Shown: positions 25,131 to 34,021 of the stretch, in pieces
How positions within the stretch are numbered: the first letter of the stretch is position 1
Layout: every line of letters starts with the position of its first letter
Virus record (IMG/VR): IMGVR_UViG_3300043294_000079
Coordinates: 1 to 54,399 of that record
Source of the DNA: a virus
Taxonomy: Duplodnaviria > Caudoviricetes
DNA length: 54,399 nt
Reading direction: 5' to 3' (one strand)
Program-made: the position numbers and the translations under genes
The notes under the pieces: model-generated
What the model saw: only the letters and a program-made list of their open reading frames with translations
Told to the model about the DNA's origin: nothing
Databases searched by the model: none

Positions 25131-25593
25131 GGTCTTGGACCTCCAGCGCGGCCATCTCCTGGTTGAGGCTCTTGATCGCCTCGGCGAAGGCGTCCTCGGT
25201 CATGACCTCGATGCGGCTGCGAGTTGGCTCGTCAAGTCCTAGCAGGTCAGCGCGCCTTTTCGCTATGCGGTCAAACGCCGAGTTGAGCGTCGCCATCTGT
25301 TCGGGTGTCAGCTCCTTGCCATACTCCGTCCAGAGACGACGTTCACGCCGATCGAGTTTGAGCAGCTCATTGGCCTTGGCTGCTGCCACGTCCTCGGTGC
25401 CCTGTACCGCCTTGAATCCTCTGTCCGCCGAGCGATGGGCCGTCGATGCCTCGATGCCAAGCACTTCACCGATCTGCGAATAGGTCAGGCTGGCCGACCT
25501 CAGCTCCGCTGCCTTCTGGTCTTGCTCGATCGTTTCGAGGGCACGGATGGCCCTGCCTCTGCCGTCCCTGGCCTTGATCCGTGCGTTGGTCAT
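25057..25593 (-). CDS. terS: Terminase small subunit
   Basis: HTH (LTYSQIGEVLGI) and KRRADLLGLDEP; directly upstream of terL. Confidence 0.8.
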   Translation of the reverse strand: MTNARIKARDGRGRAIRALETIEQDQKAAELRSASLTYSQIGEVLGIEASTAHRSADRGFKAVQGTEDVAAAKANELLKLDRRERRLWTEYGKELTPEQMATLNSAFDRIAKRRADLLGLDEPTRSRIEVMTEDAFAEAIKSLNQEMAALEVQDRDDTSDHSDAGDSSPVPGAAWQTQ

Positions 25594-25719
25594 GGTCTTG
25601 TAATGGCAGCCATGGGTTGCACCGCCTTCCGGACGCTGGCCAGGTCCCGGGGTGTTCTTGCACCGCCGGGACCGCTGCTTGCACGGTCCTCTAGGGACTC
25701 ACGTGGTCAAGCTTACGCG

Positions 25720-25748
25720 TTTATACACTTTCGTGGCGACAAATGCAA
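25720..25748 (-). promoter_or_regulatory. Candidate late promoter upstream of terS
   Basis: TTGCAT-N17-TATAAA on the minus strand in an AT-richer gap. Confidence 0.4.
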
Positions 25749-25771
25749 GTCATCGCAGGTCAGGGGGTGGC

Positions 25772-25823
25772 GACAGACGGGAGCTAGGCAACAGGAGTCC
25801 CTGCCACCCAGCCCCCGCCTGTC
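25772..25823 (-). other. 24-bp RNA hairpin closing the GGC-NN array (processing or terminator structure)
   Basis: GACAGGCGGGGGCTGGGTGGCAGG-GACT-CCTGTTGCCTAGCTCCCGTCTGTC pairs fully only with G.U wobbles, i.e. as minus-strand RNA. Confidence 0.75.
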
Positions 25824-26034
25824 TAACCTCGCCGTGCCTCGCCACGCCAAGCCCCGCCTTGCCACGCCTCGCCGCGCCTTGCCGCGTCACTTCACGTTCA
25901 CCCATGCCTGCCTCGCCAGGCCCGGCCTCGCCATGCCTCGCCGCGCCTTGCCGCGTCACTTCACGTTCACCCATGCCTGCCTCGCCTAGCCCAGCCAGGC
26001 CCGGCCCTGCCCAGCCGCGTCACTTCACATTCAC
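25824..26034 (-). repeat. Non-coding array of three units: 18-nt leader GTGAAYGTGAAGTGACGC + (GGC-NN)7/8/12 (putative guide RNAs)
   Basis: Leaders at 26034, 25970 and 25901; strict 5-nt periodicity with near-invariant GGC (one GGT) and variable NN; units 1 and 2 end GGCAGGCATGG. Confidence 0.9.
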
Positions 26035-26759
26035 GCCGTATCTTCCAGATTCAGCTGCTCCGCCGCGTTGAGCAGGTCCCTCAGCCGACGCAGCGCCGAC
26101 ACCAGCGGGCCGCTCTCCCAGTCGAGCAGATGAAACTCGAGTGCATCGGACAACTGGCGCACGAGCAACCCGTAGTTGGTCCCTGGCGCCGACCTTTGTG
26201 CCCGCGCCTGCTCCATGGTCATCGTGCGACCACGGAAATGGGCGGTGGATGCCTTGAGTGGGATGCTCTCACCCGTCTCGACAGAAACCCCAGTCGTGGA
26301 TCCACGGACCGTGTGCGCTATGAGCACCTCCAGCCTCTGCACGCTGCTCGGGGTCACATACAGCACTTTTGCTATCTGACCTTCGCTCATGCCGCCTTCC
26401 GCCAGCATAAGCACTACGCGTCGCTTGTCGATCTCGTTCAACGGACGCCCGTGTAGCGCGTTGAGGGTAACAGCCTCAGCCAGGGCCGCAGTGTTGGATG
26501 CATATGTTCGCAAGACGGCATCGATCTCGACATCGGGGCCACATGCCTTGAGCCACGCCGGGACGCGATGCCACCCGTCAGTGAGGCGATAGGTACGCTT
26601 CTCTGCAACCACGGGCGGAATCAACATTCCGTAGCCAGCCTTGATCGACTCAACCAAGGATGCGACGTGCTGGCTGTTGACTCCCGTTTCGCGCCTCGGG
26701 TAGATATCCCAGTCCATTACGAACCGAGACGCGGGAACCTTGACAGTTTTAGCGTCCAC
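26031..26759 (-). CDS. ParB/Srx N-terminal domain + HTH protein
   Basis: YPR, PPVV, RLTDGWHRV, NALHGRPL, HTH MSEGQIAKVLYVTPSSVQR. Confidence 0.85.
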   Translation of the reverse strand: MDAKTVKVPASRFVMDWDIYPRRETGVNSQHVASLVESIKAGYGMLIPPVVAEKRTYRLTDGWHRVPAWLKACGPDVEIDAVLRTYASNTAALAEAVTLNALHGRPLNEIDKRRVVLMLAEGGMSEGQIAKVLYVTPSSVQRLEVLIAHTVRGSTTGVSVETGESIPLKASTAHFRGRTMTMEQARAQRSAPGTNYGLLVRQLSDALEFHLLDWESGPLVSALRRLRDLLNAAEQLNLEDTA

Positions 26760-27507
26760 GGCGCTTTATCTCCTCTCCTGCCCACTCCAACAACTCGGCA
26801 GTCTCTGTGTCGTAGGGCTCAGCAACCTCCATCGCCTTCACCTGGGCCTTTCGTGCTCCATCCTTCGTAACCTTGAGAAAGTCCGGATCATCCAGTTCAC
26901 AGAGGCGAAACTGCCCGAACGTCCCACTGCCCTTTTCCGGTCGCCAGTCCCCCACGCCAATCGTGAACCCTGCGGTGGAAAGGAGATTGACGATCGCCTT
27001 CTCCGTGAGATTCGGCATCAGGAACCGAATCGACAGTCGACACCCCCAAGCGGGAAGAAGAGCCCTGGTCCTCACGTCTGGGGCTCCCTGAATGCCGGCT
27101 TGGCGCACAATCGCCATAAACAACTTAGGAATCCCGAACATCGGTAGGCGGTACCCCTGGACCCATACCAGACGACCGATCTGTGCCTTCGATGCATCAG
27201 GGAGATCGACCGCAGCCGACATCATCGCCTTCTTGAACGCTGCCGCCGGGACCGCAAGTCGTGTCGGACCCTCCTCAAGGACATAGGGTGCCGAGTTGAA
27301 CTCAACCAGCGGTTCATGTTTGAGCGTCGCTTTTCTCTCGGCGTTGTTCCTCGGACCACGAGGCACCAACAGCTCGTGCTTCGCTTTCTCGCTAAGACGG
27401 TTGGCAATGTACGGCGTGAGTCCTAGAACGCCGACTTCTACTTCGCCGACCTCGGGTGGTGAGACCTCGATGACGGTAGTTTCCTTGGGTTTGCCAGCTA
27501 TTGCCAT
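26749..27507 (-). CDS. Stand-alone RAMP/Cas7-like RNA-binding protein
   Basis: RAMP-like order of motifs: beta1 VGVLGLTPY, VPAAAFKKAM (cf. iPgsslKGa), thumb-like VRQAG..DVRTR, C-terminal Gly loop GVGDWRPEKGSGTFGQF; RBS AGAAGGAG. Confidence 0.7.
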   Translation of the reverse strand: MAIAGKPKETTVIEVSPPEVGEVEVGVLGLTPYIANRLSEKAKHELLVPRGPRNNAERKATLKHEPLVEFNSAPYVLEEGPTRLAVPAAAFKKAMMSAAVDLPDASKAQIGRLVWVQGYRLPMFGIPKLFMAIVRQAGIQGAPDVRTRALLPAWGCRLSIRFLMPNLTEKAIVNLLSTAGFTIGVGDWRPEKGSGTFGQFRLCELDDPDFLKVTKDGARKAQVKAMEVAEPYDTETAELLEWAGEEIKRRGR

Positions 27508-27543: not shown

Positions 27544-28236
27544 TCACTTCGGTCTCGACTTCTCGAACTTCGGTCGGTCAGGTCGACCGGCTCGCAGCCA
27601 CGCGGTGTAGCAAGCGCCGCAGTAGCCCGACCGCATCCGGTCCTTGGGCGTGCCAGCGATGTCCGTGCCACAACGAGCACACACGCCAGCCAGACTCGAC
27701 TGCCTGCCTCGGTAAGCGTCCGCGGCCTTGAGCACGACCGTCGCCTGCTTGTGAGCCAGCTTCGCCAGGCCGTGAATCTCACTCACCATCCCCTGGAACT
27801 CACTCACGAAGTCGCCGAGCGGATCCGGGTACGGCTGCCAGGTGTCAGGCGTCGTCTCCTCGGTCCCGTTGTCACGCTTGATGATGCGACCGCGCGCCTT
27901 GCGCTCGACCTGCTCCTCTGTCGGATCGCTCAGGCGCCCCCCGTGGATGTCGCTCTGTCCCATGCCTGCCGGGTAGCCGTCGACGGCCGCTGTCTCCTCG
28001 GCGCGGGCATACAGGTCTGCCAGCACACCGGCGTCTGCGTACTGGGACAGGATCTCGATGGTGTCGGTCAGTTTCTGGGCGTCGCGCTCGGCTCGCGACA
28101 GCGTCTTGGCCTTCGGTTTACGGCGGTCCACCCAGCACACTCCTCGGTTCGGTAAGATCTGAGCGGATACGGAACCCCTGTTCTGGATGCACGACGGCTG
28201 GGTCACGAGCTCGGCCGCCGTTGTGTGTTCAGTCAA
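27544..28236 (-). CDS. Zinc-finger protein, possible late regulator
   Basis: CARC...CGACY C-terminus; near the end of the early operon; TTGA overlap. Confidence 0.55.
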   Translation of the reverse strand: MTEHTTAAELVTQPSCIQNRGSVSAQILPNRGVCWVDRRKPKAKTLSRAERDAQKLTDTIEILSQYADAGVLADLYARAEETAAVDGYPAGMGQSDIHGGRLSDPTEEQVERKARGRIIKRDNGTEETTPDTWQPYPDPLGDFVSEFQGMVSEIHGLAKLAHKQATVVLKAADAYRGRQSSLAGVCARCGTDIAGTPKDRMRSGYCGACYTAWLRAGRPDRPKFEKSRPK

Positions 28237-28526
28237 GGTCGCCTCTTTCGGGGCACGACCTTCGACGCGTCCACGAACCACTGAAGCTCAGCAATGATCT
28301 TGCGTGCTTGCGGAACAGTCAGCAGGACCGTCGCAAACTTGTCGGCGTCAAGACTCAGCCGCAGGTAGGGAAGGATCCTCCCGTCAAGCACGCTGTCTCG
28401 GTAGACGTAGCCAGGGATCACGGCGAAATCGACGTGCGCTAGCCCAGCAGACCAGTCCCACGGTCGGATGTGGGAACCGTCGTAGGCGAGAACCTTGATT
28501 ACGTCGGTTGACGCGTAGATGCTCAC
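28233..28526 (-). CDS. Hypothetical protein
   Basis: GTGA-coupled ORF MSIYASTDV... Confidence 0.5.
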   Translation of the reverse strand: MSIYASTDVIKVLAYDGSHIRPWDWSAGLAHVDFAVIPGYVYRDSVLDGRILPYLRLSLDADKFATVLLTVPQARKIIAELQWFVDASKVVPRKRRP

Positions 28527-28752: not shown

Positions 28753-29016
28753 TCACCATTTCACCCAGCTCCACACCGACCATCCGATCGCCAGAACGAC
28801 CAACATCACCGTCACAGCCCGGATCAGGCCGGCCACGGCATCTGCTCGTCTGGCTCTCGCGCTCCAGTGCAAGGCAGCCGCGTGCTGGACCTCGGCCATC
28901 GCGTTGTTCACGGCCACCACGGCCCGGGCGTTCTCCAGTCCCGCGTGCTTGGCGAGCGAGTCGATGTTGTGATCGAAGTCCAGGTCGATCATCGCCGGGA
29001 TTTCTGACGTGCTCAT
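28753..29016 (-). CDS. Small membrane protein
   Basis: C-terminal TM VTVMLVVLAIGWSVWSW. Confidence 0.5.
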   Translation of the reverse strand: MSTSEIPAMIDLDFDHNIDSLAKHAGLENARAVVAVNNAMAEVQHAAALHWSARARRADAVAGLIRAVTVMLVVLAIGWSVWSWVKW

Positions 29017-29774
29017 GACGCACCTCTCAGTAGTTCCAGCAACCGATCTGACTGCCACTCGCGTTCCTTCTTATGCGCGGCGGCAGAGGCGGCGGAGGCG
29101 GCGTTGGCGTCGGCGCAGCCGGCGGCGTAGTAGGCGGCGGCGTAGTAGGCGGCGGCGGCGTCGGCGGCGCAGCCGGCGGCGTCGGCGGCGTAGTAGGCGG
29201 CGGCGGCGTCGGCGGCGTAGTAGGCGGCGGAGGCGGCGTAGTAGGCGGCGGAGGCGGCGTAGTAGGCGGCGTTGGCGTCGGCGCAGCCGGCGGCGAAGGC
29301 GGCGGCGTAGGCGGCGGCGGCGTCGTAGGCGGCGGAGGCGGCGTAGTAGGCGGCGTAGCGATTTGCCTCAGTCGGGTTCTTCGCCCATCTCAACGCTGCA
29401 TCAATCGCCTCGCGCGGCCGCTTGTCACCGGGGTAGCGATCCTCGTAGTGTCTGAGCACTCGTTTGGCACACTCCGCTGCCCACTGGACGGCGATGATCT
29501 GTGTCAACGTCCCGACCTGGCTCACGAGCCGCGCAGAACTGAACGCCACCTTGTCATCGGCAGCGACGGACGCGCCGCGACCCTCGGCGATCCACAGCAC
29601 GGCACCGTTGCGAGCGTGCTCTGCGATGCCCTGGTGTGTGGCAAGGTGCCAGCCGGATACACACATCACTGGTCTCGTGTCAGCAGTCCACGCGCCCACC
29701 CTGACAGGCCATTTCACCCTCTGGTAGGTGGTAGTGCGATCCGGGTTGAGCCATTTGTAACAGGTCTCTCTCAT
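29013..29774 (-). CDS. Imm5-like domain protein with Ala/Tyr low-complexity repeats
   Basis: WAAECAKRVL..YE..YPGDKRPREAIDAA motif followed by AAYYAASA repeats and EREWQ. Confidence 0.7.
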   Translation of the reverse strand: MRETCYKWLNPDRTTTYQRVKWPVRVGAWTADTRPVMCVSGWHLATHQGIAEHARNGAVLWIAEGRGASVAADDKVAFSSARLVSQVGTLTQIIAVQWAAECAKRVLRHYEDRYPGDKRPREAIDAALRWAKNPTEANRYAAYYAASAAYDAAAAYAAAFAAGCADANAAYYAASAAYYAASAAYYAADAAAAYYAADAAGCAADAAAAYYAAAYYAAGCADANAASAASAAAHKKEREWQSDRLLELLRGAS

Positions 29775-32607: not shown

Positions 32608-32855
32608 GCCGCGTAGCCAGCCACCCTCGCTTCAAGAACGGCGTCGGAGTTGAAAGTCCGTATTCGGTGACAGTTCGCGCAGACCACGTCGCACTTAGCA
32701 ATCTCAGCCTGAACCGTGACCAGGCTGAAGTAACGCATCTGACTGAGGTGGTAACGCTTTTGTGACGGGTCGCGATGGCGCGTCAGGGTGTACTCAGGCT
32801 CGGCGCCATTCGCCTCGGCGTTGCCTTCGAGCGTCTGCGTCATTGTGAGAGTCAC
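32589..32855 (-). CDS. Truncated/degenerate HNH protein
   Basis: HRDP...EIAKCDVVCANCHRIRT present but no N-terminal CxxC. Confidence 0.55.
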   Translation of the reverse strand: MTLTMTQTLEGNAEANGAEPEYTLTRHRDPSQKRYHLSQMRYFSLVTVQAEIAKCDVVCANCHRIRTFNSDAVLEARVAGYAAWKAGN

Positions 32856-34021
32856 GACGCCTCGTCAAATAGCGACGCCTGCGTGACCAGGCAATGCGGC
32901 GAGCACCACAACACCTCGCAGTGGCGGTTGTCCTTGTTGCCGCCCGTGCTCGTGCTCGTCTGATAGGCGGCCGATGCCGACCAGCGGATGCGGCGCCAAG
33001 ACTTCGGGATCGCATCGTCGTGCTCGGTGGAGTAGCCAGCCAGCACGATCCGATAGCGCGGGTTGTCGCCATTAGCTACCGCCCAGTCCCGGCAAGCGAT
33101 AGCGACGTCGACCGTCTCGCTCGCGTACAGACCCGCGGTTCGCACGTCCTCCGCATAGGGTGGATCGAGGAACACACCGACCGACGCTCCGAAGCTCAGC
33201 GCGCCCTTCGTGACAACCCGTGACCAGTCGCCCGTGCAGACCCTGACATCGCGCAGCCGTTCGGCAAGCTCGCGCATATAGGCCGCGATGCCTTCGGTGC
33301 GGTAGCTCAGGTTGTTATAACCAGCCCGGCCCGCGTCGCCGAGGTGAGGGAGCTGGCGGTTGACGCCCTGGCCCGCGTCGCCGAGGTGAGGGAGCTGGCG
33401 GTTGACGCCCTGGCCCGCGTCGCCGAGGTGAGGGAGCTTGCGGTTGACGCCCTGGCCCGCGTCGCCGAGGTGAGGGCGCTTGCGGTTGACGCCCTGGCCC
33501 GCGTCGCCGAGGTGAGGGAGCTGGCTCTCATCATCCGTCGCCGAGGTGAGGGAGCTTGCGGTTGACGCCCTGGCCCGCGTCGCTTCGTAGTCCCACGGGC
33601 CGGTTCCTGAGCACCAGCCGCCACCGATCCAGGCATTGACGCCCCAGACCCACCAGCCCGCGATCTTGGCGTCGTAGAACATCGGGTCACACTCAAGTCC
33701 CGCCGCCAAAGTCTCGCGGCCCTCATTCACGAGCCATAAGTGACGGGCGAACAAGTCGTCCTCGTTCACCGGCCAGTCTGCGAACGCCGCCACAGTCTCA
33801 GGATCGGAGGCTAGTGCTCGCCAGAAGTTCGCCAAGTAGTGATCCGCGTCATTTACCGTCTCGGCGCGTCGCGTGCCATCTGCGAGGTTGTGAGGCCGTT
33901 CTAGAAGAACAGCGAGAGAGCCAGCGAACGGTTCAACGTAGTTGTCCACGTCACCGAGCGCCGCCCATACGTTGGGAGCAACCCTGCGCTTGCCACCGAA
34001 CCAGACGAAGGGGGCCTTCAT
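32852..34021 (-). CDS. DNA adenine methyltransferase (Dam/D12-like) with internal repeats
   Basis: PFVWFGGK, YVEPFAGS, FLDPPY. Confidence 0.88.
   Translation of the reverse strand: MKAPFVWFGGKRRVAPNVWAALGDVDNYVEPFAGSLAVLLERPHNLADGTRRAETVNDADHYLANFWRALASDPETVAAFADWPVNEDDLFARHLWLVNEGRETLAAGLECDPMFYDAKIAGWWVWGVNAWIGGGWCSGTGPWDYEATRARASTASSLTSATDDESQLPHLGDAGQGVNRKRPHLGDAGQGVNRKLPHLGDAGQGVNRQLPHLGDAGQGVNRQLPHLGDAGRAGYNNLSYRTEGIAAYMRELAERLRDVRVCTGDWSRVVTKGALSFGASVGVFLDPPYAEDVRTAGLYASETVDVAIACRDWAVANGDNPRYRIVLAGYSTEHDDAIPKSWRRIRWSASAAYQTSTSTGGNKDNRHCEVLWCSPHCLVTQASLFDEAS
33329..33583 (-). repeat. 42-bp coding tandem repeat (QLPHLGDAGQGVNR), about 5.5 copies
   Basis: Directly visible; the first copy is read in a different frame. 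Confidence 0.9.

Follow-up and report, generated by a model that had tools for sequence, protein, structure and literature searches.

A probable VIPR system with a predicted ParB-fold accessory protein in a peat phage

VIPR (Viral Interference Programmable Repeat) systems were described in April 2026 in preprints from the Doudna laboratory (10.64898/2026.04.26.720920 = PMC13142463; 10.64898/2026.04.26.720927), and further preprints of 2026 cover satellite competition (10.64898/2026.10.15.759431) and a language-model survey (10.64898/2026.10.21.760802). A VIPR system comprises a RAMP protein of ~20 kDa (Vipr), an accessory gene (vap) and vrRNAs of 9–16 YNNGG repeats (PMC13142463). One Vipr protomer occupies each repeat, and the GGY triplet is held by a G-loop (D177, W178 and R179), a thumb residue (R138) and H17 (10.64898/2026.04.26.720927). 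According to the VIPR preprints, the NN pairs recognize double-stranded DNA (dsDNA), skipping one base between pairs, and a bound target in a competing phage or satellite is transcriptionally silenced. Seven types are distinguished, and array architectures vary between them, from type II tails and staggered, one-base-overlapping arrays to hammerhead-interspersed arrays and single vrRNAs (PMC13142463). Our main reference is the type II system of Escherichia phage SUSP1 (Vipr, vap1 and vrRNAs), the arrays of which were shown to be RNAs bound by Vipr (PMC13142463). Here we describe a locus in IMG/VR virus record IMGVR_UViG_3300043294_000079 (Duplodnaviria; Caudoviricetes), the whole 54,399-nt stretch of which was analysed and is called the window. 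The locus is very probably a phage-borne VIPR system, with a mechanism carried over by analogy from the published systems. It adds a real further member to a kind already known from the 2026 preprints, and is not a new kind.

All features of the locus lie on the minus strand, on which vipr, an accessory gene, three array units (26034..25824) and a 24-bp hairpin follow one another in that order. The first gene, vipr (26749..27507), encodes a 252-aa, minimal Cas7-like RAMP protein with a predicted G-loop, GVGDWRP (residues 183–189), and a predicted thumb arginine, R148. The second gene (26031..26759) stands in the vap position, overlaps the first by 11 nt and encodes a 242-aa protein with a predicted ParB/KorB/Noc fold. 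A first-pass annotation, made from the letters of the DNA alone, had read the region as two overlapping genes followed directly by an array whose first leader overlaps the stop codon of the ParB-like gene. The minus-strand coordinates confirm this reading, down to the stop codon (26033..26031), which is contained in the first copy of an 18-nt element. The unit lengths of 64, 69 and 78 nt that it gave match exactly (64 and 69 nt from start to start, and 78 nt for the third unit). Its pentamer counts of 7, 8 and 12 stand for the third unit but not for the other two, for which strict counting of GGY-NN gives 8 and 9, because the last GGCAG of each is counted here. It had also seen no cas1, cas2 or CRISPR array, in agreement with our scans: none of the 7 tandem-repeat rows of the whole window is CRISPR-like, and none of 59 window proteins matched a Cas family in PADLOC.

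The 252-aa protein was modelled with AlphaFold2 from an alignment of 40 homologues (pLDDT 86.8, pTM 0.81). Foldseek gave the model 47 matches in the PDB at E ≤ 1e-3, the best of them to chains of Csm, type VII, Cas7-11 and Cmr complexes. The VIA wide structure search, which is independent of Foldseek, likewise retrieved Csm and Cmr chains (Z = 9.5 for 9g9a_D, 9.0 for 6s6b_I and 8.8 for Csm3, 6ae2_B), and CRISPR RAMPs accounted for nearly all of its best 30 matches. Three viral models in BFVD matched as well, one of them named as a RAMP superfamily protein. The RAMP/Cas7-like fold that the earlier reading had proposed, with Foldseek as the check, is thus borne out: the protein is predicted to fold as a Cas7-type RAMP, reduced to a single RNA recognition motif (RRM) with G-loop and thumb. 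The model carries in addition a C-terminal three-helix extension of ~50 aa. No family in Pfam, NCBIfam or PADLOC covers the protein, and in PHROGs it falls in an unnamed family. Among the candidates scored, 494 homologues were found at E ≤ 1e-3; the 120 homologues listed are mostly ~250 aa long and none is functionally named.

The relationship to SUSP1 Vipr can be traced at the level of sequence. As reference we used gene agp039 (195 aa) of NC_028808.2, the accession given in 10.64898/2026.10.15.759431, which carries H17, R138 and D177-W178-R179, the residues named in the cryo-EM preprint (10.64898/2026.04.26.720927). Residues 136–202 of the window's Vipr were aligned by hhalign with residues 126–187 of SUSP1 Vipr (probability 94.7%, E = 5.7e-8), and BLASTP gave E = 3e-7 for the same pair. 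In the alignment GVGDWRP is identical, R148 stands opposite R138, and D187, W188 and R189 pair with D177, W178 and R179. Among 40 family members no substitution occurs at R148, G184, G186 or R189, and the conservation of D187 and W188 is 90% or more. A search of the PDB with the profile of the Vipr family gave a sole significant match, 36pp_D, 'SUSP1 Vipr protein' (E = 3e-5), the runner-up being at E = 0.6. The likeness to VIPR-type (GGY/NN) systems, which the first-pass annotation had put forward tentatively, therefore proved correct: the preprints exist, and the protein is a sequence-level relative of SUSP1 Vipr.

The array consists of three copies of an 18-mer, GTGAAYGTGAAGTGACGC, starting on the minus strand at 26034, 25970 and 25901, each followed by a tract of pentamers. 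Copy 1 (26017..26034), with T at the Y position, precedes tract 1 (25977..26016; 8 GGC-NN pentamers); copy 2 (25953..25970) precedes tract 2 (25908..25952; 9 GGC-NN pentamers); and copy 3 (25884..25901) precedes tract 3 (25824..25883; 12 GGY-NN pentamers). Tracts 1 and 2 share a terminal GGCGAGGCAGGCATGG, and each is joined to the next unit by a GCATGG junction (25971..25976 and 25902..25907), which with the preceding G makes a GGCAT pentamer overlapping by one base and resembles the slips of frame that separate one unit from the next in the arrays of relatives. GGC is kept in 28 of the 29 strict pentamers, the remaining one being GGT. The first three NN pairs of tracts 2 and 3 are equal and the later pairs differ; over the first 8 pentamers of these tracts, the 5 differing positions are all NN. 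When both strands of the 54,399 bases were scanned for runs of at least six GGY recurring every 5 nt, only these three tracts were found, and 100 first-order Markov simulations of the window yielded a mean of 0.01 tracts and a maximum of 1. Tandem Repeats Finder reported 69-nt and 5/10-nt periods at the array.

Directly after tract 3 lies a perfect 24-bp hairpin with a 4-nt loop (25772..25823), the 5′ arm of which is made of degenerate pentamers. None of 200 shuffles was as stable (z = −5.6), and the hairpin is likely the 3′ end or the terminator of the array transcript. A scan for consensus promoters and terminators returned one weak promoter-like site, within the accessory gene, and no T-tract terminator. 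Rfam at E ≤ 1 gave only sub-threshold, microRNA-like hairpin matches at the hairpin and no ribozyme between the units. The 18-mer followed by GG has no occurrence in IMG/VR; the element is most likely a unit boundary, serving as a processing site or a 5′ handle, and lies outside the guide.

One could also take the array for a stretch of a coding gene whose product is of low complexity and rich in Gly, Ala and Arg, as a 74-aa open reading frame (ORF; 25974..25750, minus strand) spans units 2 and 3, and in Gordonia phage Pipp a gene, gp43, is annotated over the array. We hold this to be extremely unlikely. With a period of 5 nt, which is not a multiple of 3, the fixed GGC falls in each codon position in turn; variation follows the 5-nt register and not the codon register; the arrays of relatives shift frame by one base at each unit boundary; and tract 1 lies outside the 74-aa ORF.

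GGY-NN tracts were present in 72 of 82 IMG/VR loci anchored on Vipr (319 tracts on the gene strand, 0 on the other), in 18 of 21 Vipr-anchored loci of genome contigs from many phyla (75 and 0), and in 26 of 36 loci anchored on the ParB-like protein (129 and 0). The total is 523 tracts in 139 loci, all on the gene strand. The check named in the earlier reading, whether homologues of the RAMP-like gene always adjoin such arrays, came out in its favour, as in the two Vipr-anchored sets they nearly always do. Applied to SUSP1, our tract scanner found one array upstream and three downstream, as published. In the clade to which the window's Vipr belongs, array units usually abut and are delimited by a 4-nt GGCA step; the window's array keeps the GGCA-step junction but adds the 18-mer after it.

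Distant Vipr homologues (24–29% identity) occur in 23 records of cultured actinobacteriophages, and in three of these phages, Pipp, Saal and ODay, GGY-NN tracts lie beside them on the gene strand. The array of Gordonia phage Pipp (L083 3572–3787) sits under the annotated coding sequence gp43, which is probably no gene. In Mycobacterium phage Saal (L084 2550–2772) the array takes up the space ahead of gp51 and adjoins the immunity region, and in Gordonia phage ODay (L085 3584–3726) it fills the gap between gp19 and gp20.

Comparison of strains gave a further view of the array. The stretch was found in peat metagenomes (sequencing runs referred to by code), and a contig from run X3 showed 0 differences from the window over 25419–25636 and none listed in 25684–25833. 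Over 25684–25962 the two differ at 25 positions. The 15 differences listed within the array (25834–25924) all fall on NN, including the AT of the GGCAT junction at 25902..25907, and none on GGC; the remaining ones are not individually listed and may fall in the last ~30 nt of the contig. The earlier claim that GGC is fixed and NN free therefore holds both between paralogous units and between strains. This strain turnover, confined to NN, is direct population evidence, read from sequence, that specificity would be carried by the NN positions, and with identical flanks it looks like ongoing selection. Taken together, the fold of Vipr, its homology to SUSP1 Vipr, the strand-matched GGY-NN arrays and the variation at NN lead us to conclude that the locus is, in all probability, a VIPR system.

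Contig depth over array words (25906–26006) jumps in all four peat runs, reaching 83 in X3 against 3–10 beside the array, and in several peat contigs the array continues into unrelated DNA, which suggests that these peat communities harbour many further GGC-NN arrays.

For the accessory gene, the public annotation has a start 14 codons further in, giving 228 aa; the GTG start (242 aa) is favoured because homologues extend N-terminally. The product has an N-terminal ParB/Srx-like domain with YPR and DGWHR motifs, followed by a helix-turn-helix (HTH) and a C-terminal helical part. It matches phrog_1033 in PHROGs (E = 1.9e-14), and its HTH matches in Pfam lie below the cut-off. Foldseek placed Spo0J (1vz0, E = 2e-5) first, followed by structures of KorB, Noc and ParB with cytidine triphosphate (CTP). 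The first ~135 residues superpose on 1vz0 with a root-mean-square deviation of 3.3 over 121 columns, and YPR and G-x-x-R-x-R-A align with ParB Box I and Box II, although the similarity is weak (E = 0.52). The C-terminal half differs from ParB and is poorly modelled. The ParB-HTH assignment of the first-pass annotation is in line with the phrog_1033 and Spo0J matches, and the model indicates a protein of the ParB/Spo0J/KorB/Noc fold with an HTH.

This accessory is not the usual partner of the window's Vipr clade. In 85 Vipr-anchored loci, tblastn found it in none; 73 downstream ORFs were recovered there, 64 of them from one unnamed family of about 150–170 aa. This ~160-aa family (L001–L082, for example L006 3768–4265), marked by an SPLH...W motif, is the clade's usual accessory; it has no significant match in Pfam and none in NCBIfam or PADLOC, and it was not found in the window. 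Compared by hhalign, the ParB-like family, SUSP1 vap1 and the ~160-aa family show no relationship to one another (probability 0.2% for ParB-like against vap1). A search anchored on the accessory, begun with 7 homologues and continued with their alignment, led to 36 loci, of which 34 are distinct; among viral contigs, 5 were retrieved with the alignment and none with the single sequence. Where more than 700 nt of upstream sequence was available, vipr stood directly upstream on the same strand in 15 of 19 ParB-anchored loci, and the ParB-like protein is therefore a recurrent VIPR accessory and not a chance neighbour.

The locus shares with these ParB-associated VIPR loci (L108–L143) an accessory family (29–41% identity) that adjoins vipr and GGY-NN arrays, and in some of their arrays, for example those of L120, L133 and L136, linkers of ~20 nt separate the units as they do here. 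Their Vipr, unlike that of the window, usually belongs to a shorter clade, 29–36% identical to it. The ParB-like accessory thus appears, from sequence comparison, to be combined with a different Vipr clade in the window and in L127. The latter lies on the contig that also carries L141, and no other locus besides the window's joins a Vipr of this clade (49% identity) to a ParB-like accessory. L127 (400–700) lacks canonical GGY tracts; the sequence upstream of its vipr resembles GGA-NN pentamers, possibly a purine-type variant of the repeat.

A gene of this fold ending exactly where direct repeats start raises the question whether the repeats are DNA-level sites, a parS-like centromere or iterons, bound by the ParB-like protein of a partition or plasmid-prophage maintenance module to which the RAMP-like gene is unrelated; ParB, KorB and Noc folds do bind specific DNA sites. 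Such an arrangement is very unlikely in our judgement. The arrays accompany the RAMP gene in 72 of 82 loci, and the ParB-like protein is missing from all 85 scanned with tblastn. A symmetric DNA site would need no strand bias, yet every one of the 523 tracts is on the gene strand, and NN is hypervariable where a protein-binding site is expected to be conserved. In SUSP1, arrays of like build are Vipr-bound RNAs (PMC13142463). Furthermore, no ParA-type family was detected among 43 window proteins scanned against PHROGs, and the phage has an integrase.

Within a VIPR system, the ParB-like protein allows a more speculative proposal. A ParB/KorB-fold accessory, together with vrRNAs in which a conserved 5′ element takes the place of a 3′ tail, may characterize a branch of VIPR that the preprints do not cover. 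There, the RNA-guided Vipr filament would flag the target site for a ParB-type clamp, which would load at it or spread from it, so that recognition of a single point would lead to silencing of a region. We regard this as doubtful, if conceivable; its grounds are the recurrence of the accessory with vipr, the predicted ParB fold and the position of the element 5′ of each tract.

Of the mechanism as a whole, what the window locus itself shows is its anatomy, its conserved residues and its NN turnover; the rest is transferred by analogy from the SUSP1 work. The vipr-accessory-array operon would be transcribed from the minus strand up to the 24-bp hairpin, and the transcript would yield three vrRNAs. 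Each GGC-NN pentamer would be bound by one Vipr protomer, whose G-loop (D187-W188-R189) and thumb (R148) would keep the GGC bases from pairing, so that the filament would display the NN dinucleotides. The earlier reading is refined on one point by the published target, which is dsDNA read with one base skipped between NN pairs. The displayed pairs would read dsDNA in this manner, in a register that would suit codons read without their wobble base. Once bound, the filament would silence a competitor in the same host at the level of transcription, whether phage, prophage or satellite. In the place of vap, the ParB/KorB-fold protein would probably strengthen this silencing on the DNA, at the bound site or near it.

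Searches for targets were run with this rule. In the window itself, the best one-base-skip matches were 12/16, 14/18 and 17/24, all within the null of shuffled guides, and with skips of 0–3 nothing rose above shuffled guides except the array itself at skip 3. Published VIPR systems are likewise without a self-target in the available text (PMC13142463). A scan of 143 fetched loci (785 kb) gave nothing above the null. In an exact scan of IMG/VR the unit-3 pattern had 0 matches, and the unit-2 pattern had 13, against 1 for a reversed-order control. These 13 matches come from about 5 lineages, and 11 are codon-aligned with an open sense frame. All 13 read as a common coiled-coil peptide, K-A-E-I-[DE]-R-L-[DE]-[RS]; they were not counted as a target. 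The idea that units 2 and 3 are aimed at rival vipr genes was dropped as well: the best matches, 15/18 and 18/24, were equalled by 6.6% and 5.8% of NN-order shuffles, and a protein-level scan of 120 homologues was not significant.

Several observations weigh against assigning the locus to VIPR, or against parts of the picture drawn here. By sequence, the alignment with SUSP1 Vipr is confined to the C-terminal third of the window's protein, and a counterpart of H17 could not be placed. Tract 1, with 8 pentamers, is one short of the published range of 9–16, and a conserved element stands 5′ of each tract, with a hairpin ending the third, as against the invariable 3′ tail of published type II arrays. 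None of the 8 listed sequencing runs that hold the stretch is RNA, and transcription, processing and ribonucleoprotein formation are what we infer. The role given to the accessory is a guess from its modelled fold; its Box II reads DGWHR where ParB has GERR, and CTP hydrolysis is therefore doubtful. 'ParB' has 0 occurrences in the available text of the discovery (PMC13142463) and competition (10.64898/2026.10.15.759431) preprints. Finally, the self, fetched-locus and IMG/VR scans yielded no target.

The last of these points also suits the possibility that the locus is a genuine VIPR system by descent that has decayed or become inactive here, for example as a recently arrived cassette, with guides for which no live target exists, or with a last tract locked in a hairpin. 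In agreement, the G+C content at third codon positions is 0.65 for vipr and 0.72 for the accessory gene, compared with mostly ~0.8–0.9 in neighbouring phage genes, which hints at recent arrival of the cassette, and the final, degenerate pentamers are base-paired in the hairpin. Nevertheless, we think an inactive locus improbable, as both genes are intact with the GGY-reading residues kept, GGC is perfect in all but one of the strict pentamers, and NN turns over between strains whose flanks are identical. A working VIPR system remains our preferred reading.

Set against the described systems one by one, the locus resembles that of SUSP1 in plan. Both have a small, stand-alone RAMP with a GVGDWRP G-loop and a thumb arginine, the order vipr, accessory and an array of three on one strand, ~8–12 GGY-NN pentamers per unit, a phage genome as carrier and no self-target (in the window, none above the shuffled-guide null). 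They differ in that the window's Vipr is longer (252 against 195 aa), has an extra C-terminal three-helix part and shares ~31% identity over 55–62 aligned residues; in that the triplet is GGC, whereas that of SUSP1 is mostly GGT; in that the conserved element lies 5′ of the tracts, whereas SUSP1 has a 3′ pseudoknot tail; and in the ParB-fold accessory, which is unrelated to vap1. The staggered arrays named in the legend of fig. S18 (PMC13142463) resemble those of the window's IMG/VR clade, in which Vipr is 43–54% identical and the tracts are GGC-NN, and their one-base-overlap junction, GGCAGGC, ends window tracts 1 and 2. In those relatives, however, the units abut and the accessory is of the ~160-aa family, whereas the window inserts its 18-nt element between units.

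With the Cas7 family of class 1 CRISPR-Cas systems (Csm3, Cmr4, type VII Cas7 and Cas7-11), Vipr would share an RRM core, a G-loop, a thumb and, going by the VIPR preprints, the placing of one subunit per fixed step of RNA. The step is 5 nt instead of 6 nt and the guide is interleaved with the repeat, and in the scans made the window has no cas1, cas2, cas6, large subunit or repeat-spacer array. The accessory, for its part, resembles the CTP-dependent DNA clamps ParB, KorB and Noc in the predicted fold of its first ~135 residues and in its Box I/II alignment, and departs from them in Box II, in the C-terminal half and in having no ParA partner seen among the 43 proteins scanned.

The 54.4-kb contig carries genes for terminase, portal, capsid, sheath, tube, integrase and repressor, a gene content that marks it as the genome of a temperate, contractile-tailed phage. 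The VIPR operon lies between the replication genes and the gene for the small terminase subunit. Megablast with a 10-kb query found no cultured phage, the large terminase subunit is at most 35% identical to that of any cultured phage among the matches listed, and no tRNA genes were found. Upstream of vipr, across a 36-nt gap, a minus-strand gene (27544–28281) encodes a 245-aa protein with a C-terminal CxxC...CxxC zinc-ribbon-like motif; it has no family in Pfam, PHROGs, NCBIfam or PADLOC and is absent beside vipr in the 85 related loci. Further away, at 29013–29774 on the minus strand, a 253-aa protein contains an Imm5-like domain (Pfam, E = 4.1e-9) followed by Ala/Tyr-rich repeats, which in the DNA are 42–48-nt tandem repeats. 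Another tandem repeat, of 42 nt (6.4 copies, 85% matches), occupies 33324–33583 inside a 389-aa DNA methyltransferase-like gene (34021..32852).

VIPR is a very recent discovery, in which dsDNA is recognized under RNA guidance by a guide interleaved in a pentamer repeat. The window locus would be a clear environmental example of it, in a temperate phage from peat, and leaves the known picture of VIPR unchanged. The conserved element that precedes each guide tract makes the array a useful handle, and the cultured Mycobacterium and Gordonia phages that carry relatives of the system would be easy laboratory models. The ParB/KorB-fold accessory swaps between Vipr clades, which suggests that VIPR accessories are exchangeable modules.

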